Assembly (NCBI GenBank): GCA_937983075.1
Contig: CALKAQ010000033.1
Span: 4,114-68,113, forward strand
DNA length: 64,000 nt
Reading direction: 5' to 3'
Source of the DNA: an uncultured bacterium
GTDB lineage: Bacteria > Bacillota > Limnochordia > DTU080 > JAAYLA01
Part shown: positions 6,044-33,142 of the stretch, piece by piece
How the letters are laid out: every line of letters starts with the position of its first letter
How positions within the stretch are numbered: the stretch's first letter is position 1
Position numbers and translations under genes: made by a program
Notes under the pieces: generated by a model
Told to the model about the DNA's origin: nothing
What the model saw: the letters and a program-made list of their open reading frames with translations, nothing else
Database searches by the model: none

Positions 6044-7344
6044 TCTTTCTTTCCATACCGCATTTGCGTCCGCAAGACGTCGAGAAGATGGCATCCTTGA
6101 CCAAGCTGCGCGAGCAGGGGGCCGCAGCGGCGCTCATTCCACAGTTTCCGGCGTTGACGTGGCCGGTGCAGGCGACGATGATGACGGGAGTCGCCCCGAG
6201 TGAACACGGCATCACGGCAAACGGGCTCTACCGCCGTGACACGGACGAAGTCGACATGTGGACGTTTTGGAACAAGGAAATTCAAGCACCACAGGTGTGG
6301 GACAAACTCAGAGAGGTTAGTCCGCAAACAACGACGGGCAGCTGGTTCCCACTTCTCACCAAAGGTGCCAACGTCCATTACGCCATGACGCCGAAACCGA
6401 AGCACAATCCGGATGGAACGGAAACCATGTGGTGCTATTCACGCCCGGAAGATCTGTACGAACAGCTTCTTCCGGAGCATGGTCATTTTCCCTTGCACCA
6501 TTTTTGGGGTCCGTTGTCTTCCATAAAAGGAAGCGAATGGATTGTCAACTCCGCGCTCTCGCTTTTTGAACGGGAAGCGCCTAACTTCCTATATATTTAC
6601 ATTCCGCAGCTGGACTACGCGGCACAAAAGACAGGACCGGACTCTCCGGAAGCCATGGAGCGCGTGCGCGAACTCGACGAACTCTTAGAGAAGTTTTTTG
6701 CTCGCTTGCATGAATTGGCGGACGATCTCGAAATCATCGTCGCAGGAGAATACGTCATCACGCCCGTTTCCAATCCGGTCTATCCGAACCGACTCCTGCG
6801 CGAAGCCGGTTTTCTTGCGCTCGGTGAAGAAGAAAACGGCCGTGAGCTTCTGCTGACGGGCAAAAGCAAGGCGTGGGCGCTGTGCGATCACCAAATTGCA
6901 CACGTTTACGTCAAAGATGCTGATGTCGAACAGGTTGCCGCGGTGTTCCGAGGGGTGCGGGGAATTGAGCACGTTCTCGTCGGTGATGCGAAGAAAGAAT
7001 GGGGAATCGATCATCCCAACAGCGGCGAAATTGTTTTGGTCTCCGATGCGAACAGCTGGTTTGCGTATCCGTGGTGGCTCGACGATGCCAAAGCACCTTC
7101 GTTTGCCGCCACGGTAGATATTCATCGCAAGCCTGGCTACGATCCGGTCGAATTGTTTTTGGATCCGGCCACGCGGAAAATTCCTTTGGATGCGAGTCTC
7201 GTTAAGGGCTCCCATGGGCGTGTCACCGATGACCCCAGTCTCCACACGGTGCTCATTTCCTCGAGACCAAGGCAACTGCCTGAGCAGTTGCACCAACGTG
7301 AAATACCCGGAATTATATTTGATGCTTTAGACATATCCATCTAG
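6028..7344 (+). CDS. Alkaline phosphatase superfamily type I phosphodiesterase / nucleotide pyrophosphatase family protein (EboF-like)
   Basis: AAGGAGGGTG RBS; QFPALTWPVQATMMTGVAPSEHGI resembles the NPP-family catalytic-Thr/metal site motif; overlaps upstream gene by 16 nt. Confidence 0.8.
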   Translation: MAKHVVFLSIPHLRPQDVEKMASLTKLREQGAAAALIPQFPALTWPVQATMMTGVAPSEHGITANGLYRRDTDEVDMWTFWNKEIQAPQVWDKLREVSPQTTTGSWFPLLTKGANVHYAMTPKPKHNPDGTETMWCYSRPEDLYEQLLPEHGHFPLHHFWGPLSSIKGSEWIVNSALSLFEREAPNFLYIYIPQLDYAAQKTGPDSPEAMERVRELDELLEKFFARLHELADDLEIIVAGEYVITPVSNPVYPNRLLREAGFLALGEEENGRELLLTGKSKAWALCDHQIAHVYVKDADVEQVAAVFRGVRGIEHVLVGDAKKEWGIDHPNSGEIVLVSDANSWFAYPWWLDDAKAPSFAATVDIHRKPGYDPVELFLDPATRKIPLDASLVKGSHGRVTDDPSLHTVLISSRPRQLPEQLHQREIPGIIFDALDISI

Positions 7345-7417
7345 AGAATTTGCTTGGATTGGACGCGCTCCCCGGGGAGAACTTCCCCTGGGGAGTGCAG
7401 AAAGGGTGGCCATTCCC

Positions 7418-8341
7418 ATGCCCGCTCCGCAAAAGAATGCGCTTCATGCGCAACCGAAGTTGCAGCGGAATTTTGTGCAAGCTTTTTTGCAACTCATCCG
7501 ACTGCCAAATCTATTCACCGCGGCTGCCGATCCGCTGGCTGGAGCTTTAGCCGCGGCCGGTCTGCTCGGATTGCCGCTGCATTGGCCAGCGGCGTTGGCT
7601 GCTGCTGCGGTGGGAGTGTTTCTTTATGCCGGCGGCGTCGTGCTCAACGACTATGTCGACTTGAAAGAGGATTCACAAGACAGGCCGGATCGCCCGCTGC
7701 CAAGCGGGGAGGTTTCTCCGGCGGAAGCATTGGCCGTTTCGGTCTGTCTTTTCGGCATTGGTGCCGGCTTGGCGCTCATTGCTTTACCCAGCGGAGCGAA
7801 ATGGACGGTCTTGGCTCTAATTCTTAGTATTCTTTTATATAATATTTGGGCCAAGCACGTTCCGGTCGCAGGCCCCATTGTCATGGGCGCATGCAGGGCG
7901 CTCAATATTTACGTCGGTTTGTGGACGGTCACCGGTGGATTCGAGGCGTTGTGGTGGGTAGGTCTTCTGAGTCTCGGCCACTTCGCCGCCTTCACGTATC
8001 TCGGCGAAGCGGAAGCAAGCACTCCAAGTCCATCGCAGATAGCTGCAGTCTTTTTGGCGGCAGCGGCGGTAAGCGGTGTTTTGGTTTGGCAGCTCGGTAC
8101 GGCGTGGATGACGTTGTTGGCCGTCGGTGTTTATTTCTTGATCAACGTTGAATCGGCTATCCGACTGATTCGGGAACGAGTCGGCGCCAACGTGCATCGC
8201 GGCGTCAAACGCGGCATTCTTTCTCACGTCTTGATTCATGTGGCAGTGGTCGGAGCGTTGGCCGGTATCGGCTATGGTCTCATTCCGTTGTTTTTGTTGG
8301 GAGCAAGCACCGTCGCAGCACGGACTTTAGTCATGACCTAA
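7418..8341 (+). CDS. UbiA-family prenyltransferase (EboC-like), polytopic membrane protein
   Basis: NDYVDLKEDSQDRPDRPLPSG (NDxxDxxxD Asp-rich motif), multiple TM segments; ATG at 7418 after AAAGGGTGG (ORF opens at GTG 7406). Confidence 0.85.
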   Translation: MPAPQKNALHAQPKLQRNFVQAFLQLIRLPNLFTAAADPLAGALAAAGLLGLPLHWPAALAAAAVGVFLYAGGVVLNDYVDLKEDSQDRPDRPLPSGEVSPAEALAVSVCLFGIGAGLALIALPSGAKWTVLALILSILLYNIWAKHVPVAGPIVMGACRALNIYVGLWTVTGGFEALWWVGLLSLGHFAAFTYLGEAEASTPSPSQIAAVFLAAAAVSGVLVWQLGTAWMTLLAVGVYFLINVESAIRLIRERVGANVHRGVKRGILSHVLIHVAVVGALAGIGYGLIPLFLLGASTVAARTLVMT

Positions 8342-24257: not shown

Positions 24258-24281
24258 TCGTTTTGAGGGGACGTGGAATCC

Positions 24282-24650
24282 ATGACATTGCCGGCTCATT
24301 CCGCTGTCGATTGCTGCGATCAATTTGATCCAACTTCTCCCGACGCCAAAGAAGCTCTGCGCCAAAAGCTCGTGGAAGTGGCGGGGCTGTCTGAACTGTT
24401 CAAGGCGTTGGCCGATGAAACGCGCATGCAAATTTTGTACCTGCTCTCGTTGCAAGAACTTTGCGTTTGTGACATCGCCGAGATTATGGACATGAGTCTG
24501 CCGGCGGTTTCTCACCATCTGCGCCTGCTGAAGATGATGCGAATCGTCAAGTATCGCCGCGAAGGGAAAAACGTCTACTATTCGCTGGATGACCATCACG
24601 TATTGGGGCTGATCCAGCTCGCTTTGGAACATTACGCCGAAGAACGCTAG
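24282..24650 (+). CDS. cadC: ArsR/SmtB-family metal-sensing repressor, CadC-like
   Basis: N-terminal Cys pair (DCC), ELCVCDIA alpha-3 metal-site motif, HTH ...SHHLRLLK; GAGGGGA RBS. Confidence 0.8.
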   Translation: MTLPAHSAVDCCDQFDPTSPDAKEALRQKLVEVAGLSELFKALADETRMQILYLLSLQELCVCDIAEIMDMSLPAVSHHLRLLKMMRIVKYRREGKNVYYSLDDHHVLGLIQLALEHYAEER

Positions 24651-24675
24651 TCGGTGGACAGAGGAGACGTGTATC

Positions 24676-26847
24676 ATGCCAAAGGCCGCTGCGAACGCAC
24701 AACATGAACGCGTTACGGATTTTTGGGTGGAAGGCATCACCTGCCTGGACTGCGCCGCGAAGTTTGAGCGCAACGTCGCAGCGCTGCCCGGTGTAGCCCA
24801 AGCGACGTTGAACCACGCAACCGGAAAGCTGACGGTCGTCGGTGACGCGGATCTGCAGGCGATTCGCGCACTCGGCAAAGCCGAAAACTACGTCATCCAT
24901 TCCGCCCCCAGGCAAGCGGACGCGAAGCGACGCCGCTCCGCTCTCCAACCGGAGCTGATCCGTGCGATCGTTTCGGGCTTGGCGCTCTCAGCGGCGGTCG
25001 TACTGGAAGAAGGCTTCGGTGCCGCCGCCTTTTGGACCATTCCCCTCTACATCCTCGCTGTCGTCATTGGCGGCTGGGGAAATGCTCGCAAAGCGTTCTA
25101 TGCGCTGCCGCGCCTCCATTTCAACATGAGCGTGTTGATGACCGTCGCGGTCATTGGCGCCATGATCATCGGCGAGTGGACGGAAGGTGCCCTGGTCGCA
25201 TTCTTGTTCGCCGTCTCGGAGACGCTGGAAACTTGGACCTTCACCCGCGCACGCCGCTCCATACGTGAACTCATGGATGCAGCTCCGCGCGTCGCCACGG
25301 TGCGCCGTGACAGTGGAGAGATGACGGTTGATGTCCGGTCGGTTCACGTCGGGGACGTGATGATTGTGCGTCCCGGCGAAAAAATTTCGCTCGACGGCAC
25401 TATCGTCAAAGGCACGTCATCGATCGATGAAGCGCCGATTACGGGCGAGTCGGTACCGGTAGAGAAAGGACCGGGAGATTCCGTTTACGCCGGGACGCTC
25501 AATACCTTCGGTGTGCTCGAAGTGCGAGTCACCAAGCGCTCGGAAGACACAACCCTCGCCAAGATCCTCACGCTGGTGGAAGAAGCCCAAACTAAACGAG
25601 CGTCGGCACAAGCATTTGTCGACCGTTTTGCGGCCGTATACACTCCCATTGTGATGGCCCTTGCCGGCGGCATCGCCGTGCTGCCTCCGCTCGTTTTGGG
25701 GTTGGAGTGGAGCGAGTGGGTGTATCGCGGGCTGGCTTTGCTCGTCGTCGCTTGTCCTTGCGCTTTGGTCGTTTCGAGTCCTGTCGTCATCGTCAGCGCC
25801 ATCAGCAACGCCGCACGCCACGGTGTACTGATCAAAGGGGGAATCCACCTCGAAGAAACTGCAGCAGTCGAAGCCGTGGCTTTTGACAAAACCGGCACGC
25901 TGACGGCTGGAAAACCCGTCGTGACGGATATCATTCCGGCGTCGGGCCAGACCGAAGAAGCATTGCTCCGAACGGCCATGAGCGTTGAAGTGCATTCGGA
26001 ACATCCGTTGGCCAAAGCGGTCGTCGAGGCGGCCAAACGGCAAGGCATGGAGCCGGCGGACGTCGACCGGTTCAAAGCGATCAGCGGGCGCGGTGTGACC
26101 GCCACGCTGAACGGGAAAAACATTTTAGTCGGCAGCGAGCGCCTGTTGCTCGAAAACGGATACGCCCTCGGCGAGATCGAGGACGACATTCAACGTCTCC
26201 AAGGGGAAGGCAAGACGGTCATCCTCGTTGGCGCTGACCACGTGCTGTTAGGATTGCTTGCGATCGCGGATCAGCCCCGAGCATATACTCGTAATGCGCT
26301 GCAGGCCCTGAAAGAGGCCGGGGTGAAACACACCGTCATGCTGACCGGAGACCACGAACTCGCCGCCCGGCACGTTGCCGCTGTCGTCGGTGTCGATGAT
26401 TATATCGCCGGTTTGCTGCCGGATGAAAAAGCGAAAGCCGTGCGGCAGCTGCAGGAACGTTACGGGAAAGTCGCCATGGTCGGCGACGGGATTAATGACG
26501 CGCCGGCTTTGGCGACGGCGACGGTCGGCATCGCCATGGGGAGCGCCGGAACCGACGCCGCTTTGGAGACCGCCGACATTGCGCTCATGGCAGACGATCT
26601 CACCAAACTGGCGTACATCATCCGGCTGAGCCGTCAAGCGATGCGTGTCATGAAGCAAAACATCTATTTTTCGGTGCTGATCAAGCTGGTGGCCATTTTG
26701 GCGGTGTTCCCCGGCTGGCTGACGCTGTGGCTGGCGATTTTGTCCGACATGGGAGCGACAGTGCTCGTCACGTTGAACGGCATGCGGCTGTTATCGGTGC
26801 GCAACACTGAAGGTCGCGCGTCGCATCGAGTCGTCACGCATGTCTAG
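24676..26847 (+). CDS. cadA: Heavy-metal (Cd/Zn/Pb-type) translocating P1B-type ATPase
   Basis: N-terminal metal-binding domain with CxxC, CPC transmembrane motif, DKTGTLT phosphorylation site, GDGINDAP hinge. Confidence 0.85.
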   Translation: MPKAAANAQHERVTDFWVEGITCLDCAAKFERNVAALPGVAQATLNHATGKLTVVGDADLQAIRALGKAENYVIHSAPRQADAKRRRSALQPELIRAIVSGLALSAAVVLEEGFGAAAFWTIPLYILAVVIGGWGNARKAFYALPRLHFNMSVLMTVAVIGAMIIGEWTEGALVAFLFAVSETLETWTFTRARRSIRELMDAAPRVATVRRDSGEMTVDVRSVHVGDVMIVRPGEKISLDGTIVKGTSSIDEAPITGESVPVEKGPGDSVYAGTLNTFGVLEVRVTKRSEDTTLAKILTLVEEAQTKRASAQAFVDRFAAVYTPIVMALAGGIAVLPPLVLGLEWSEWVYRGLALLVVACPCALVVSSPVVIVSAISNAARHGVLIKGGIHLEETAAVEAVAFDKTGTLTAGKPVVTDIIPASGQTEEALLRTAMSVEVHSEHPLAKAVVEAAKRQGMEPADVDRFKAISGRGVTATLNGKNILVGSERLLLENGYALGEIEDDIQRLQGEGKTVILVGADHVLLGLLAIADQPRAYTRNALQALKEAGVKHTVMLTGDHELAARHVAAVVGVDDYIAGLLPDEKAKAVRQLQERYGKVAMVGDGINDAPALATATVGIAMGSAGTDAALETADIALMADDLTKLAYIIRLSRQAMRVMKQNIYFSVLIKLVAILAVFPGWLTLWLAILSDMGATVLVTLNGMRLLSVRNTEGRASHRVVTHV

Positions 26848-26862
26848 CGCACATTTCCTTCG

Positions 26863-26939
26863 TTGACATTTTTCCCCTTGACACAAGTCATCCGAGAGAA
26901 TTACAATATGAGTGCACTATGTACCTAGTGCACTCATAT
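26863..26939 (+). promoter_or_regulatory. Promoter (TTGACA-18-TACAAT) overlapped by a 14-6-14 perfect inverted repeat ATATGAGTGCACTA-TGTACC-TAGTGCACTCATAT
   Basis: Direct reading; contains two GTGCAC cores 16 bp centre-to-centre; upstream of hypothetical secreted protein gene. Confidence 0.45.
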
Positions 26940-26965
26940 TCATTTTCTGAAAGGAGCGGATCATC

Positions 26966-27709
26966 GTGTCGCGAACCGTGCGATTTTCGGTTTATGTCGG
27001 ACTTCTCGCAGCCTTATGGGCAGGAATGTCCTTGGGCGCATGGGCAAATGAAAGTGCCTTCAGCCCAGACGTCCACGAACTTTCCGATTCGAAGCTGCCT
27101 CTCGAGCAATTGGCCGCCAAATTGTTGGCCGCCAGATTGGATGAAGAAACCGCCGAGAGACTGGGTTACATTTTATATGAGCTCAATCAGCTGCTGGAGC
27201 CGGAAGATCTGCTGACGATTCTGCAATTGCTCGCGGTCAGAACGGAAAGATCGCATAGCGTCACTGCTTATGCCATGGCGGAACCGCTGACGGTTGTGGA
27301 AGAAACATCGACGCTGCGCCTACCGGCGGCAAGTGAAATACGCAGCATCGCCGTCGCACCGGCAATTCAACTCCGTCCGTATTTGCTCACCGAGCGCGTG
27401 GTGGCAACGGACGCGTCTCCGCGCCGGGCGCTGGCCGCTCGAGCAGTTGTCGGCGGACACCTGCCCGTGGTACAGCCTGCTGCAGCTCAACCTGACGTCC
27501 CCGCGTTGATTCAACAGCTGAACGCCGCGCTGCAAAATCCCGCCTTGGAATGGCGCCTGCCGGACGGCACCCGGCTTCGTCCGCGCATCATCATCGAACT
27601 CGTCCCAATGGACGAACCTCGTGTTGATCGAGGGAGCGCTCGGGCGCTGATACCGGAAAGCGCCGTCACCGAACGGGTCATCATCCAAGATGTCCTGATC
27701 GACGAATAA
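26966..27709 (+). CDS. Hypothetical secreted protein
   Basis: GTG start after AAAGGAGCGG; signal peptide; no recognised domain. Confidence 0.5.
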   Translation: MSRTVRFSVYVGLLAALWAGMSLGAWANESAFSPDVHELSDSKLPLEQLAAKLLAARLDEETAERLGYILYELNQLLEPEDLLTILQLLAVRTERSHSVTAYAMAEPLTVVEETSTLRLPAASEIRSIAVAPAIQLRPYLLTERVVATDASPRRALAARAVVGGHLPVVQPAAAQPDVPALIQQLNAALQNPALEWRLPDGTRLRPRIIIELVPMDEPRVDRGSARALIPESAVTERVIIQDVLIDE

Positions 27710-27823
27710 CCGTGACGGGGGAAAGGAGCACTTCGCTCCTTTCTCCCTGAACACGGCTGCATTGAAGGCGCGGCCTCCTCGTATTCATGAACGAGAAATG
27801 CGATACGAAGGAGGCGGCCGCCA

Positions 27824-28102
27824 ATGCTGCGCTGGATCAAAGGATTGACTTTGTTGGGAAACGTCCTGGGGACGATTGTGGTCGTATCGGGGCTCATCCG
27901 TTATTTCTTTGAAGGTCAAACCGTCGGCATCCTTATCGCCCTGGCGATCGTCATCGTCGGCCCGTTGGAAGACGTCCTCAAAAGAAAGGTGCGTAACCAT
28001 CCCGGCGGAGAAAAAGGCGAGGCTTGGGCTACCGTCGTCGATCTCATGACGAGTATCGCCTTCCTCGTGCTGCTCGGTTGGGTTGTTTTGATAGCATCAT
28101 AA
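27824..28102 (+). CDS. Small membrane protein (92 aa)
   Basis: GAAGGAGG RBS; two hydrophobic helices. Confidence 0.5.
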   Translation: MLRWIKGLTLLGNVLGTIVVVSGLIRYFFEGQTVGILIALAIVIVGPLEDVLKRKVRNHPGGEKGEAWATVVDLMTSIAFLVLLGWVVLIAS

Positions 28103-28142
28103 CCTTCTGAAGCAAAGGAGCGAGGCACGACAGCTTCCTCGC

Positions 28143-28199
28143 TTGACAAAATATGCGGGCCGACGTATGCTTTTTGTGCACTAGGTATATGGTGCACTA
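28143..28199 (+). promoter_or_regulatory. Promoter (TTGACA-17-TATGCT) followed by GTGCACTA-N8-GTGCACTA repeat (two GTGCAC cores 16 bp apart) upstream of the YtrA-type regulator
   Basis: Direct reading; same core spacing as the site at 26906-26939. Confidence 0.45.
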
Positions 28200-28273
28200 A
28201 TTCGTTCAACTTATCACCGCGATATCCGGATCATATGGAGTAGAGCGCCCGGACGAAGAAAAGAGGTGAAACG

Positions 28274-28708
28274 GTGCGCTTGGATTTTGATCCGTCCAAA
28301 CCGATTTACCAACAAATCATCGATGAATTCAAGCGAGCAGTCGCTCGCGGCGATTTGAAGCCCGGTGAAAAGATACCAGCGCAGCGAGAAATGGCACAAA
28401 TGGCCGGTGTCAATCCAAATACCGTACAGCGTGCGTACAGGGAGATGGAGCAGATGGGAATCGTGGAAACGCTGCGTGGTCAAGGGACGTTCATCCGTCA
28501 GGACTTGACGGCGTTGACGTCCATCCGAGAAGAAATGGCGCAGTTGGCTGTCGACAAGTTTGTTGAGGAAATGCGCGGCCTAGGGTTTGGAGACTGGGAC
28601 ATCTTGGCCATCGCTGCCCGCCGTCTCGGTATCGCGCCGCCGGGGGACAACAACTTAAAGAAAAACGACAAAGGGGGAACCGATGCGAATGCGGGCGACC
28701 CAAATTAA
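28274..28708 (+). CDS. GntR-family transcriptional regulator, short YtrA subfamily
   Basis: GntR winged HTH (PGEKIPAQREMAQMAGVNPNTVQRAYREME) with short C-terminal domain; GTG start after AAGAGGTGA. Confidence 0.8.
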   Translation: MRLDFDPSKPIYQQIIDEFKRAVARGDLKPGEKIPAQREMAQMAGVNPNTVQRAYREMEQMGIVETLRGQGTFIRQDLTALTSIREEMAQLAVDKFVEEMRGLGFGDWDILAIAARRLGIAPPGDNNLKKNDKGGTDANAGDPN

Positions 28709-29447
28709 ATCCAAACGATCATCAATCACCGTATCGGAACACGTTGACAATCAGCCGATCATTCGCATCGAAAACGTTTCAAAACGCTTTCCCGGTGCAG
28801 ATGCACTGCGCGGCGTGTCGGTCGACATTCCGCAAGGAACATTTGTCGGGTTGTTGGGCCCGAATGGCAGCGGCAAGTCAACGTTGCTCAAACTGATCGC
28901 CGGTCTGCTTTATCCCGATGAAGGCCGCATCTTGATCGAGGGGAAGACACCGGGCAGGGCAACGAAGGCGCGTGTGGCCTATTTGCCGGAGATCGACCAC
29001 CTTTATCCAACGATGACCGTAAAACAAACGCTCGATTTTATGCGTGCCTTTTTTGCTGACTGGAGCCAGGAACGGGCTGAACGGCTCGTGGACTTCATGG
29101 ATTTGCCGCTGACGGCACGCGTAGGTCAGATGTCCAAAGGCATGCGGGGTCGGTTGCGCCTCGTGGTCACCTTGGCGCGTTCAGCACCAGTCGTCCTGTT
29201 GGACGAGCCGTTGTCCGGCATCGATCCGCCTTCGCGCAACCGCATTGTCAAGGCGATTTTGTCGGAGTACATCTCGGGCGAGCAGACGATGATTTTGTCG
29301 ACCCACGAAATTCACGAATCGGAACCGTTGTTTGAACAGCTTTTGTTTTTGGATCACGGCAAGCTCATTTTGCAAGGGGATGCCGAGTCGCTCCGGCAAC
29401 AATACGGGAAATCCATTCGCGACCTGCTCGAGGAGGTGTACGCGTGA
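28683..29447 (+). CDS. ABC transporter ATP-binding protein
   Basis: Walker A GPNGSGKST, signature and Walker B motifs; start overlaps regulator gene. Confidence 0.8.
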   Translation: MRMRATQIKSKRSSITVSEHVDNQPIIRIENVSKRFPGADALRGVSVDIPQGTFVGLLGPNGSGKSTLLKLIAGLLYPDEGRILIEGKTPGRATKARVAYLPEIDHLYPTMTVKQTLDFMRAFFADWSQERAERLVDFMDLPLTARVGQMSKGMRGRLRLVVTLARSAPVVLLDEPLSGIDPPSRNRIVKAILSEYISGEQTMILSTHEIHESEPLFEQLLFLDHGKLILQGDAESLRQQYGKSIRDLLEEVYA

Positions 29448-30202
29448 ACGCTTTTTGGCAGCTGGTGCGTCAAGACGTCAAACGCGCCTGGCCTACAGCC
29501 ACGGTCCTCATCGCCGCTTATGTGGTGTGGCTGATGATGATGTACCGCAGCTCACTCCAACCCGGTTTTCCTGTATTCGAAACGCTCATCACTCGAATCA
29601 TCCCCATTTACATTGCTGTTGGCATTTGGCACAGCATCCAACGTTTTAGTATCTGGAACTCCTCGCGCATGCATTTGCTGCTTTCCCTGCCGACTGCGGG
29701 AATGGTGGTGACGGGCGCAGCTTTTTTGGTCCTTTGGCTGGAGCTGGTTGCGTACGGGCTCATTGTTTTTGGCGGTGCCTCGTTGCTGAGCTCATTCAGC
29801 GGTTCCCCATTGTTGGGACTTGACGGCGAGGCCGTTGGCTGGATCAGCTGGTTGTCCATTTTCCTGCGTCTGCTCGTTTTCATCGCGCTCATTGCAGCGA
29901 TACTTATTTCCATTGCTCAGTTCAGTTGGCTTTTGGGACGTACTTTTCGCAGATATCACGCTCCGGTGAGCATCATCACCGCTTGCGGCTTGTTGTGGAT
30001 CTTCTTGCGGCTAGGCATGGCGATTGGGAGTTGGTCCACTTGGGATCTGCCTTTTACCCTTTATTTCCTCGCGGAAGGCTATGACGTGAGGGGGCTGATG
30101 CAAATAACCCTTAACATGCTGCCATTGCTCGCGATGCTGGCACTTGCCTATGTGCTTTTTTGGCTGGGCGCCCGACTGTTTGAAGCGAGAATCGAGGTGT
30201 AA
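29444..30202 (+). CDS. Integral membrane protein, probable ABC-2 type permease partner
   Basis: GTG start after GAGGAGGTG; 6 predicted TM segments; operon position after ATPase. Confidence 0.6.
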   Translation: MNAFWQLVRQDVKRAWPTATVLIAAYVVWLMMMYRSSLQPGFPVFETLITRIIPIYIAVGIWHSIQRFSIWNSSRMHLLLSLPTAGMVVTGAAFLVLWLELVAYGLIVFGGASLLSSFSGSPLLGLDGEAVGWISWLSIFLRLLVFIALIAAILISIAQFSWLLGRTFRRYHAPVSIITACGLLWIFLRLGMAIGSWSTWDLPFTLYFLAEGYDVRGLMQITLNMLPLLAMLALAYVLFWLGARLFEARIEV

Positions 30203-30204
30203 CC

Positions 30205-31131
30205 ATGGAGGTATTGAAGCGACCACATCATGTCTTCACCGGGTTGCTGCTCCTTTTGGCCGTGCTGATTGCTCTCGACGTCTATCGGACCGGTATCGCC
30301 AACATAGTTGACGGCTTCGGTCGGGCATTGAACGTACGCGTCGAATCGAACGTGCCGCGAATGGGCCGGGTTGAGTTAGCAATGGAAGACCTCATCCGCC
30401 TTCGCATCGAACCGACGCGTGCTGCAAGTGAGATCGCTTCACCGGAAGTCACCCTTTACTGGGAGCCGGTTCCGAATGCGGCGTACTACCGGATCGGCGT
30501 ATCGCCGGGGAGCGTTTCCGATTTGATCAGGGGAGATGCCGTGATCCGACCATTCGCGGAGACAACCGATTACGAGGTGCGAATTCGACTGGATGAGCTG
30601 CGTTGGACGTGGTGGGAGAGACAGTACGACGGTGCGTTGATTTCACCGACCACACTGCTGGGAGCGATCATTCCAGGTGAACGACTGCTCATCGTCGTCG
30701 ATGCGTACAGCGACGAAGGCGACCTCATTGGCAGCAGCGTGATTATCGAAAGAGGCGGATATGCGATGGCGGCGCATGTCTGGCACATTGCAACGGATGG
30801 AAGCACGGGACTGGCGTGGTCTGCGGAAGCGCGTGCCATTTTGGAGGGAAGGTATGAAGAGGCACTTCTCGGGTTGCAGCGGCGGTTGGCCCAAAACCCG
30901 TATGACGAAGAAGCGCTCCACATCCTTTTCCGGGCTTACTACTTCGGTATCGATCGAACTCGCCGTTATCAAAACCCTGAACTCGCCGTGTTTTACGGCA
31001 CGCGGTTGCTTGAGGTGCTGCCGCCGGGCGACGTGCGCGAAGGGTACCTGCAACGGACGTACGAGATGGCCAACAAGGCGAACATCGCTTGGATCGCTCC
31101 CGACGCCGGCGTTGGACAGGAGGGTGAATGA
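30205..31131 (+). CDS. Hypothetical membrane-anchored protein
   Basis: Single N-terminal TM then soluble domain; no recognised family. Confidence 0.5.
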   Translation: MEVLKRPHHVFTGLLLLLAVLIALDVYRTGIANIVDGFGRALNVRVESNVPRMGRVELAMEDLIRLRIEPTRAASEIASPEVTLYWEPVPNAAYYRIGVSPGSVSDLIRGDAVIRPFAETTDYEVRIRLDELRWTWWERQYDGALISPTTLLGAIIPGERLLIVVDAYSDEGDLIGSSVIIERGGYAMAAHVWHIATDGSTGLAWSAEARAILEGRYEEALLGLQRRLAQNPYDEEALHILFRAYYFGIDRTRRYQNPELAVFYGTRLLEVLPPGDVREGYLQRTYEMANKANIAWIAPDAGVGQEGE

Positions 31132-31928
31132 TGAACCGACCGTTTTTGGCACTGCTGCGCAAAGAATTCCATTTAGCAAAGTTCCGCATCGGGATGGTCA
31201 GCTTGGTGATCATTCTCCTCAACTTCGCCTTGTATTTGTTGGCGCTGCGTGGTTTGTACGCCACACCCTTGGGCATGCTTCAACTTCTAGTGATATTTCT
31301 TTTCGCCCTCTGGCGGGGATATGAGAGCATGCACGATGAGTGGGCCGGCGGTCAGGCAACACTCCTTCTGACACTGCCGATTCCGGGCTGGTACCATACG
31401 TTCGTCAAAACATTCGTTTCGCTGGCAGAAGTCGTGTGGTACGCCATACTCGTAACGGCGGGCACGTTTGTTTTGACTTTGCCGTCGGGAGACGCGTTTA
31501 TGATTTCCGGCTTCTATTTTGAAGCCGAATACGCTTTAACATCAAGTGTTCTGTGGAAAGTGTTTTTTTGGATGATCTTCAATTTTGCAAGGATATATTT
31601 CATCCTCATCAGCATCACGCAGATTGCTTTTGTGGTCGGGCGTACAGTATCGCAACGGCGCGGAATCGCTGCGCTGTTCGGCGGCGGAGTCTTTTTGTGG
31701 TTCATTGACCGCGTGGGGGTGCTTTTGGCCCCGGCCTTTGCATGGCTGCCGCGAGTATACGGCACGAGCTTCATGGCGGTTTCGACCTCCAGTATGGGGA
31801 TTGCTTCAAGCCATTTGTCGTTGGATCTCAATCCAACCCCGAGCGGCGAAATTGCCGGACTCTTCATCGCAACGATTCTCGCCTATTTGATCGTCGGTTG
31901 GCTCCTCGAGCGTCGAGCACAACTTTGA
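31128..31928 (+). CDS. Integral membrane protein (possible second permease)
   Basis: Start overlaps upstream stop (ATGA); multiple TM helices. Confidence 0.55.
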   Translation: MMNRPFLALLRKEFHLAKFRIGMVSLVIILLNFALYLLALRGLYATPLGMLQLLVIFLFALWRGYESMHDEWAGGQATLLLTLPIPGWYHTFVKTFVSLAEVVWYAILVTAGTFVLTLPSGDAFMISGFYFEAEYALTSSVLWKVFFWMIFNFARIYFILISITQIAFVVGRTVSQRRGIAALFGGGVFLWFIDRVGVLLAPAFAWLPRVYGTSFMAVSTSSMGIASSHLSLDLNPTPSGEIAGLFIATILAYLIVGWLLERRAQL

Positions 31929-31942
31929 AAGGTGGAGACGAA

Positions 31943-33142
31943 TTGCGCAAGCATCTGGGTATATGGCTGATATGGATTACGCTTGTTGCCGTTGCCGCCG
32001 CTGACGTTGCAGTCAACGGCTGGCATGCCATCTTCTCTACGGAAGACGCGCTCGATGCATCACTGGGGACGTCTGCGGCGAATGCGGCACGAATTTCGCA
32101 CATCGCCATGGGGCGCGAATATACAACGAGCGTTGCTGCAGCGGACGTGGAACGTCTGGTGATTGACAATCCGGCCGGATCGGTTGTGGTGCACGGTATG
32201 GCGAATAACGACAACATCGAGCTGCAAGCATGGCTGATTGTGTATACGAACGATGAGAACGAAAGCAAGGAAGTGTTGGAACAAACTCAATTCACGGTTG
32301 TGATGGATCATGGAGTCCTTCGCCCCGAGCTGGATCCGGATCCGGGTACACTTTTATCCGCGGATTCGCCTTGGGACGTTTTGTGGGAAATTTCGGTGCC
32401 TAGCCATATCCATGTTGACATTGTAAACCGCTACGGACCGGTGCGCGTGCAAGGATTATCCGGAGCGTTGCATGTCACGAACGAGCGCGATCTTGTCGAC
32501 ATCAGCGAAGTCGAAGGTACGGTCCACGTTGTCCTCTACGACGGTCAGCTCGAAGTGCAGCAAGTCGACGGGGCGATCGTTGTGGAGGCAAGCAACAGTG
32601 AGCTGCATTTGAGCTCAGTCACTGGATCCATTGAACTCGAAGCCTCGGATTCCGACATCACGGGCAGTATGTTTCACGGCCATTCTCACCTGAATGTGAC
32701 GTCGGGACACATCCACTTGAGCGAATTTTCGGGTGATATCGCCCTGCGTTTGGTCGATACGAGTATGTTTGCGCGAACGACGCAGCCGTTTGAGACATTG
32801 AGCGCCGATATCATTGGGCAAAACGCTGTTTTCGAATTCCCTGACAACGAAGCCGTCGGTGAGATGGATGTACGTGTCGAGTCTTCGCACGTCGCATTCT
32901 TGATTCCACCGCCTGTCGATCATACATTCAATATTCATGTAAGACGGGGAGCCAGATTGGTATCCGAGTGGGATTTCGAATTGGCAGCAGAAGACGGGGG
33001 GAAGCTGTATCGCGCTGTGTTCGGAGAAGGCAGTCATTTGTTTACGATCGAGGCGGTCAATGGAGCCCGTGTCAATTTAGGATTGCCTCAATCGAACCGT
33101 GAAATCAGGATGTTCATCGAACAGAACATCCTGAGTCCCTAA
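31943..33142 (+). CDS. DUF4097 (LiaG/YvlB-like putative adhesin beta-helix) domain protein with N-terminal membrane anchor
   Basis: TTG start after GGTGGAG; N-terminal TM; repetitive V-x-V-x beta-strand pattern (VHVT, VHVVLYDGQLEV, LHLSSVTGSIELEASDSDI) typical of DUF4097. Confidence 0.65.
   Translation: MRKHLGIWLIWITLVAVAAADVAVNGWHAIFSTEDALDASLGTSAANAARISHIAMGREYTTSVAAADVERLVIDNPAGSVVVHGMANNDNIELQAWLIVYTNDENESKEVLEQTQFTVVMDHGVLRPELDPDPGTLLSADSPWDVLWEISVPSHIHVDIVNRYGPVRVQGLSGALHVTNERDLVDISEVEGTVHVVLYDGQLEVQQVDGAIVVEASNSELHLSSVTGSIELEASDSDITGSMFHGHSHLNVTSGHIHLSEFSGDIALRLVDTSMFARTTQPFETLSADIIGQNAVFEFPDNEAVGEMDVRVESSHVAFLIPPPVDHTFNIHVRRGARLVSEWDFELAAEDGGKLYRAVFGEGSHLFTIEAVNGARVNLGLPQSNREIRMFIEQNILSP

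Follow-up and report, generated by a model that had tools for sequence, protein, structure and literature searches.

Paired GTGCAC boxes at two promoters as candidate operators of the YtrA-subfamily GntR repressor encoded beside them in an uncultured Limnochordia bacterium

Two neighbouring promoters in a stretch of 64,000 nucleotides from an uncultured bacterium of the Limnochordia (contig CALKAQ010000033.1) each carry a pair of GTGCAC hexamers, which raises the question of what factor recognizes them. The whole 64-kb stretch is referred to here as the window, and coordinates are positions within it unless another locus is named. The first promoter lies ahead of a gene for a 247-residue orphan protein and the second ahead of a GntR-type regulator gene and its ATP-binding cassette (ABC) transporter operon; a preliminary description of the window had suggested that the regulator, a YtrA-like protein, acts at both. 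We find that the two motifs are very probably operators of a YtrA-subfamily GntR repressor encoded at 28274–28708, a conclusion that draws on comparison of sequences across distant lineages.

Site 1 is a palindrome at 26906–26939, ATATGAGTGCACTA-TGTACC-TAGTGCACTCATAT, with arms that are perfect over 14 nt and GTGCAC hexamers at 26912–26917 and 26928–26933. Site 2 (28176–28199) reads GTGCACTA-GGTATATG-GTGCACTA, with hexamers at 28176–28181 and 28192–28197. The palindrome and the hexamers lie where the preliminary description had placed them, and the spacing of exactly 16 bp, centre to centre, that it reported for both sites is borne out by the coordinates. Written as 26-bp elements without strand, the candidate operators are GAGTGCACTA-TGTACC-TAGTGCACTC (operator 1, 26910–26935, two boxes with a 16-bp period) and TTGTGCACTA-GGTATA-TGGTGCACTA (operator 2, 28174–28199, putatively autoregulatory). 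The arrangement GTGCAC-N10-GTGCAC, with at most one mismatch, occurs in two places in the 64 kb (26912–26933 and 28176–28197) where 0.2 are expected; both copies fall in promoter regions, and there is no third in the window. Lone GTGCAC hexamers are at background level (16 found and 18 expected in the window), so what sets the two sites apart is the pairing. The 10-mer TAGTGCACTA, again with no more than one mismatch, is represented in the window by these four boxes only.

Both pairs stand in the same register to a promoter. A consensus scan of 26500–28500 finds exactly two sigma-70-type promoters, both near-consensus and both on the forward strand: promoter 1 (26878–26907), with a −35 TTGACA at 26878–26883, an 18-nt spacer and a −10 TACAAT at 26902–26907, and promoter 2 (28143–28171), with a −35 TTGACA at 28143–28148, a 17-nt spacer and a −10 TATGCT at 28166–28171. 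The last T of each −10 hexamer is exactly 4 nt ahead of the first G of the first box, and the 26-bp operator begins 3 nt past the −10 and spans the predicted transcription start and the first ~25 transcribed bases. The motifs had been described as overlapping the −10 and the start; the predicted start is indeed covered, but the core operator is clear of the −10 hexamer, and at site 1 the last three −10 bases are reached by the extended arm only. A position at about +1 to +25 argues for a repressor.

Is the arrangement tied to this regulator elsewhere? One genome per GTDB species was scanned with an alignment of 33 homologues, yielding 80 loci in Paenibacillus, Cohnella-like bacteria, Limnochordia, Halanaerobiales (Halanaerobium), Syntrophomonadaceae (Syntrophomonas), Thermoanaerobacterium, Moorella and others. 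A first search of the distant loci, for two GTGCAC-like hexamers 16 bp apart, showed a near-invariant hexamer-pair arrangement upstream of their GntR genes, and a position weight matrix was built from 57 distant sites, with the window and its close relatives excluded. The matrix consensus is T(-10 end)-a-a-TAGTGCACTAGT-nn-A(c)TAGTGCACTA, with about 20 of the 26 positions strongly conserved, and can be simplified to −10/aa/TAGTGCACTA-N6-TAGTGCACTA. Position 3 of the motif is G in 94% and position 20 is C in 89%; GT and AC lie far from the dyad (G1T2 and A21C22, 20 bp apart in the consensus). The −10 register is also kept: 91% of sites have the T that ends the −10, at position −4, and 45 of the 57 have both hexamers in fixed register.

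When applied to the window, this matrix gives 27.4 bits at operator 1 and 27.2 bits at operator 2, with the rest below 8 bits; the maxima in 20 shuffles of the window have a median of ~4 bits, the largest being 15.7. At a threshold of at least 14 bits, 73 of the 76 loci with enough upstream sequence have the motif ahead of the orthologous GntR gene, the site lying within 260 nt of the GntR start in 65 and 260–1400 nt upstream in 8 more. This clearly answers the concern, raised at the outset, that the motif might not be conserved upstream of orthologous operons. The remaining 473 kb of flank hold only two further sites. One of the two is in a metagenome-assembled genome (MAG) of the Bacillota (L040; L numbers denote the loci and contigs compared), at 6788–6813 (26.8 bits), downstream of the GntR/ABC operon and ahead of a gene (6923–7558) for a 211-residue signal-peptide protein unrelated to the window's 247-residue protein; the window is thus not alone in having a second operator for an exported protein nearby.

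The same association is seen in metagenomes. A scan of a metagenome collection for exact GTGCACTA-N6-TAGTGCAC returned at least 120 stretches, and among the matches listed a homologue of the window's GntR gene starts 14–532 nt downstream, in the correct orientation, in 40 of 120; several other listed matches have the same promoter architecture on contigs that end before the gene. The rest of the listed matches are unrelated, and include terminator-like hairpin stems, (GTGCACTA)n tandem repeats and a family of ~100-bp palindromes. The bare pattern is not exclusive across hundreds of gigabases, and the association with the GntR family is overwhelming. Occurrence at random frequency, the other outcome that would have counted against the proposal, is clearly not what is seen. 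A chance origin of the motif pair was considered and is ruled out by the shuffles, the independently trained matrix and the conservation.

Comparison with close relatives extends this to both promoters. The position of operator 2 is kept in all of the contigs L001–L006 (GntR proteins 88%, 73% and 71% identical), with TATGCT-ttct-GTGCACTAgttacatgGTGCACTAgg in L001, TATGCT-ctcg-GTGCACTAgtgttgtgGTGCACTAgt in L005 and TATTAT-aaca-GTGCACTAggcaattaGTGCACTAgg in L006; orthologous sites are present in L001, L005, L006, L008, L009 and about 70 further loci. The 247-residue protein has relatives in three clusters only among 5.8 billion proteins (identical, 63% and 42% identity), and operator 1 precedes all three, being kept upstream of the homologues in L001–L003, L088 and L087. 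It reads TACAAT-aCGAGTGCACTAaattacTAGTGCACTCGtat in L088 and TACAAT-aCGAGTGCACTAatcaccTAGTGCACTCGtgtat in L087, and in these two loci the −35 and −10 hexamers of promoter 1 are conserved and the spacers have diverged. This is a clear phylogenetic footprint, and it supports the view that the unit of the 247-residue gene and the 92-residue membrane protein gene that follows it is under the same control as the GntR operon. Footprinting of orthologous intergenic regions had been suggested as a check, and both sites prove to be conserved upstream of orthologous genes. The proposal of one regulon, joining 26966–28102 with 28274–33142, likewise gains from the retention of site 1 and its hexamers at the 63% and 42% homologues amid diverged spacers. 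A lone AGTGCACTC in L005 was considered as a remnant operator and rejected, as it sits within the diverged homologue of the 247-residue gene.

What kind of protein is the regulator? Its 144 residues include a GntR-type winged helix-turn-helix domain (PF00392, E=7e-17, residues 12–74), and the AlphaFold2 model, made from a 33-sequence alignment, has a mean predicted local distance difference test score (pLDDT) of 87. In the model the winged helix-turn-helix consists of helices 11–25, 37–44 and 48–60 and a β-hairpin at 64–74, and the C-terminal part has exactly two helices, 78–102 and 107–118, followed by a disordered tail; the recognition helix, VNPNTVQRAYREME, is highly conserved. The best matches among solved structures (Foldseek, phmmer) are the short YtrA-type proteins 4r1h, 3neu, 3by6, 2du9/2ek5 (CGL2947) and 6sbs. 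The nearest NCBIfam models are those of PmtR and Rv1152 (NF047563 and NF053730), where it reaches 62.1 bits (cut-off 200) and 65.4 bits (cut-off 170); since these scores are far under the cut-offs, the regulator is outside the PmtR and Rv1152 equivalog groups. The best match among the GTDB species representatives is 60% identical. The gene is in an operon with genes for an ABC ATPase and membrane proteins, as it is in L005, L006, L040 and L086. The regulator is a YtrA-subfamily GntR protein, with the winged helix-turn-helix, two-helix C-terminus, ABC operon and long palindromic operator of that group.

The adjacent YtrA-like protein would thus be the cognate factor at both sites, as had first been supposed, in view of the motif's association with its homologues in 73 of the 76 loci, the fixed box spacing and −10 register, and an independent matrix that picks exactly these two sites. 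In the mechanism we propose, two TAGTGCACTA-like boxes with a 16-bp period make up each palindromic operator of 26 bp, and a repressor dimer would place one winged helix on each box, ~54 Å apart, and so block open-complex formation or promoter escape. We infer that one extended dimer contacts both boxes, because their separation of 16–17 bp (~54–58 Å) is compatible with the 62 Å of CGL2947. At promoter 2 this would give autorepression of the GntR/ABC-transporter/membrane-protein operon, and at promoter 1 it would bring a lineage-specific unit, the secreted-type orphan of 247 residues and the 92-residue membrane protein, under the same control. If the parallel with characterised YtrA-family systems holds, engagement of a substrate by the cognate ABC transporter probably ends repression. 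This substrate is likely a peptide or compound active at the envelope; the repressor could be released through sequestration by the ATPase, as for MbrR, or through displacement driven by an effector, as for PmtR.

Some points weigh against this reading. The regulon scan in this genome covered the 64 kb of the window only. Three of the 76 homologous loci (L074, L079 and L082) lack the motif within 1.4 kb upstream. Each 10-bp box is palindromic in itself, a property that a simple model of one monomer per box does not call for, and the arms of site 1 run well past the consensus and show a compensatory change, a hint of some further constraint, for example an RNA hairpin. The GntR homologues of the three loci without the motif are 43–46% identical and come from Paenibacillus radicis, Clostridium perfringens and an Oscillospiraceae MAG; these regulators are probably members of separate orthologous groups whose operators differ.

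The hint of a hairpin at site 1 leads to a first alternative, in which site 1 would be both an operator and the intrinsic terminator of an upstream ArsR-regulated cadA operon, insulating the GntR regulon from read-through. The arms of site 1 can be extended past the consensus to 15 nt (26905–26940), as AATATGAG...CTCATATT, and a terminator scan flags this interval as a 15-pair stem with the tail CATTTTCTGA; between the end of cadA (26847) and the palindrome, the scan detects nothing else that resembles a terminator. The RNA fold at site 1 has −21.4 kcal/mol and a z-score of −7.2. The gene cadA is directly upstream of site 1 in the window, where it ends 58 nt away, and in L088 and L087, and in all three a T-rich tail follows the palindrome. 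Site 1 departs from the operator consensus, TA...TA to GAG...CTC, in a way that creates further G-C pairs, and the three loci all keep this departure; there is one compensatory pair of changes, T to C with A to G, in L001/L088. Yet the U tract is interrupted and weak (tail CAUUUUCU), symmetry in the flanks is just as much to be expected if a symmetric protein binds, with secondary flanking half-sites known for YtrA factors (PMC6746942, PMC4494728), and the case for a dual function comprises three independent sequences and one compensatory event. We regard the dual role as a tentative possibility, less likely than not.

A second alternative accepts the repressor and differs in its stoichiometry: each 10-bp box (TA-GT-GC-AC-TA, GT-N2-AC) would be a full mini-palindrome with its own dimer, the two dimers lying ~1.5 helical turns apart. 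Each box is self-complementary and conserved at all ten positions, the boxes of site 2 in the window's clade read as the direct repeats GTGCACTAG...GTGCACTAG, the family-wide consensus is NyGTNxACNy (PMC4494728), and MbrR forms two complexes in electrophoretic mobility shift assays on 30-bp probes (bioRxiv 10.64898/2026.02.18.706565). YtrA-type dimers are extended, however, with the recognition helices of CGL2947 62 Å apart (quoted in PMC6746942), which fits 16–17 bp; the specificity positions of the family are 17 bp apart (12–13/29–30, PMC4494728), matching G3 and C20 here; and an AlphaFold3 model of MbrR has a single dimer over both repeats (bioRxiv 10.64898/2026.02.18.706565). Two dimers per site seem unlikely to us. 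The two alternatives can be joined, with two dimers on opposite faces of the DNA and a site 1 whose 15-bp arms double as the terminator of the metal-efflux operon; this combination we consider decidedly unlikely, and if true it would make one element both the promoter-proximal operator and the transcriptional insulator of a lineage-restricted orphan secreted protein.

Nor do the motifs appear to act solely as RNA, that is, as leader hairpins or attenuators and not as protein-bound operators. Both sites can be folded as RNA, site 2 with −12.1 kcal/mol (z-score −4.2) and site 1 with the values given above, but it is base identity and not pairing that is conserved, with ~20 of the 26 positions nearly invariant at phyla-level distances and box variants such as TAATGCAC mostly uncompensated in the partner box. 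The predicted start lies within box 1, so transcripts from these promoters would lose part of the left arm; an Rfam scan of 26500–28600 gives no match, the palindrome drawing only a sub-threshold and meaningless microRNA hit; and the motif tracks one transcription-factor family. A purely RNA function is very improbable. That another factor binds, for example the ArsR-family protein encoded at 24273–24650 or a global regulator, and that the GntR link is coincidental, is hardly credible: the ArsR-family gene and cadA are directly upstream of site 1, but an ArsR operator is expected upstream of arsR and not downstream of cadA, and the motif is found with the GntR gene at 73 of 76 loci whose surroundings are otherwise unrelated, the L006, Paenibacillus and Halanaerobium loci showing no ArsR-family gene or cadA.

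With the YtrA-subfamily repressor as the preferred factor, the system resembles several that have been described. YtrA-type factors have long palindromic motifs with GT and AC far from the dyad, mostly as single sites and with a single autoregulated ABC operon (PMC4494728). YtrA of B. subtilis is a repressor of ytrGABCDEF and of a single other unit, ywoBCD (PMC12772383). It is, as proposed for the regulator here, a short autoregulated GntR repressor with two C-terminal helices, encoded with ABC genes and with an adjoining gene for a small membrane protein, and the regulon, a predicted one in the window, in both consists of the regulator's own operon and one extra membrane-protein unit (PMC12772383). 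The transporter and accessory genes of B. subtilis are not recognisably orthologous to those of the window, and the small membrane protein gene, which is inside the operon in B. subtilis, is here upstream of the regulator's own promoter. The B. subtilis operator, AGTGTA-N13-TACACT, has a different box sequence and a spacing of 19 bp instead of 16 bp.

The MbrR/MbrAB system of Streptococcus salivarius offers a second parallel. The palindromes bound by MbrR are promoter-proximal and cannot do without G3 and C20, and the ABC ATPase MbrA frees the promoters by sequestering the repressor (bioRxiv 10.64898/2026.02.18.706565). MbrR too is YtrA-like, its gene is transcribed together with those of an ABC ATPase and a permease, and several transcription units carry the motif. 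By position number, the G3 and C20 of its 22-bp palindrome correspond to a G and a C in GTG...CAC here. The MbrR regulon includes a CaaX protease and flotillin, neither of which is seen here, and the ATP-dependent interaction of repressor and ATPase has its counterpart here in gene overlap and synteny alone.

Among other relatives, PmtR of S. aureus, which represses pmtR-pmtABCD (PMC5080381), and Rv1152 of M. tuberculosis are likewise YtrA-type repressors linked to the envelope or to peptide export (PMC5080381, PMC4923875). YtrA of S. acidocaldarius (PDB 6sbs) represses its own operon and one separate membrane-protein locus, as proposed here, and its motif covers the transcription start (PMC6746942). 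Flanking secondary half-sites contribute to its binding (PMC6746942); that protein is compact, with a 14-bp core, whereas the boxes here are 16 bp apart, as expected for extended bacterial dimers.

The system in the window is very probably an autorepressed YtrA/ABC module with one additional target promoter, an architecture already described for the YtrA family and one that introduces no new principle. The orthologous group may itself be listed in the catalogue of Suvorova et al. 2015, because the genome set of that catalogue includes Paenibacillus, Syntrophomonas and Thermoanaerobacter (PMC4494728). The portion of its supplement that lacks the YtrA site rows contains no GTGCACTA string, and a literature search for GTGCACTA and related strings gave unrelated matches only (microRNA seeds and primers). 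The analysis contributes a precise candidate operator, TAGTGCACTA-N6-TAGTGCACTA at 3 nt past the −10, for a large and widespread group of YtrA-type repressors in the Bacillota, among them those of Paenibacillus, Limnochordia, Halanaerobiales and Syntrophomonadaceae, whose ABC modules probably act in cell-envelope stress or antimicrobial-peptide responses. It also suggests a regulatory context for two genes that resist annotation, those of the 247-residue orphan with its three known relatives and of the 92-residue membrane protein.

The gene neighbourhood can be described from left to right, the genes being taken from the list of open reading frames (ORFs). Upstream of site 1 are the ArsR-family regulator gene (24273–24650) and a cadA-like gene for a P-type ATPase with an HMA domain (24676–26847), both identified by domain matches; this pair (24273–26847) is also syntenic with the 247-residue gene in L088 and L087. 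The 247-residue gene (26966–27709, forward strand) encodes a protein with an N-terminal hydrophobic, signal-like segment and no Pfam or NCBIfam family match. Its C-terminal segment is strongly conserved (LIQQLNxALQNPxLEWRLPDGTxLxPRIIIELVP). An AlphaFold2 model made from a 3-sequence alignment was discarded (pLDDT 35, predicted template modelling score 0.24).

A strong hairpin on the forward strand (27710–27756, −31 kcal/mol, z-score −5.8), without a U tract, separates this gene from that of the 92-residue small membrane protein (27824–28102, forward strand). A similar hairpin is at the same place in L005 and L087, and it might terminate transcription in part or affect RNA stability; the two genes are presumably co-transcribed despite it. 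The 92-residue gene is syntenic in L001–L005 and L088, with 60–77% identity, and its product matches no family at threshold.

The second unit begins with the regulator gene (28274–28708), and all of its genes are on the forward strand. The leader between operator 2 and the GntR gene (28200–28273 in the window, 1700–1780 in L001 and 930–1047 in L005) is ~75–175 nt long, against a median of 26 nt elsewhere, and in the window's clade it contains a short conserved stretch, AGCGCCCGG, ~20 nt ahead of the ribosome-binding site. The ABC ATPase gene (28683–29447; Pfam ABC_tran, 8e-30) starts 26 nt before the end of the regulator gene, and the two also overlap in L005 and L006. It is followed by genes for a 252-residue membrane protein (29444–30202), a 308-residue protein (30205–31131), a 266-residue membrane protein (31128–31928) and a protein of ~400 residues that is weakly LiaG/DUF4097-like (about 31928–33142); the stop and start codons of these four genes (29444–33142) overlap or abut. 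None of the four products has a Pfam match at threshold, and when the operon proteins without annotation were searched against Pfam at relaxed stringency, the matches were DUF4097, BTAD/TPR, YtpI and DUF6724, all sub-threshold and set aside. The DUF4097 label first given to the last operon gene finds no support at the Pfam threshold, its PF13349 match having E=0.047 and 13.5 bits against a cut-off of 22.9; the LiaG model gives E=9e-4 and 18.5 bits against a cut-off of 285.

The position of the regulator within its operon varies among the loci. At three of the eight with a far site, those whose ORFs were listed, a membrane-protein gene separates operator and regulator; such genes are found in L013 (3490–4001, 154 residues) and L086 (3106–3986, 273 residues, permease-like), where the regulator as second gene of the operon recalls ytrG-ytrA of B. 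subtilis. Other loci of the far-operator kind are L010–L012, L023, L080 and L081.

Some of the metagenome matches merit a brief description. The ~100-bp palindromes are centred on GTGCACTATTATAATAGTGCAC with arms ...gcaggtcgccttgtctgccgtgccgtgca..., and are an unrelated repeat that contains the pattern by accident; they are present in L092, L098, L104, L107, L114, L131, L142, L144, L146, L159 and others (metagenomes Ga0056123, Ga0056132, Ga0209681 and others). Short (GTGCACTA)n tandem arrays are found on unrelated contigs, in L120 (874), L123 (1627–1656) and L184 (264). In L191 (1159–1240), the operator ahead of the GntR homologue has more box-like sequences, GCGCACTAGTTATATAGTTAACTAGTGTGC, within 40 nt, which suggests a double site in that lineage.

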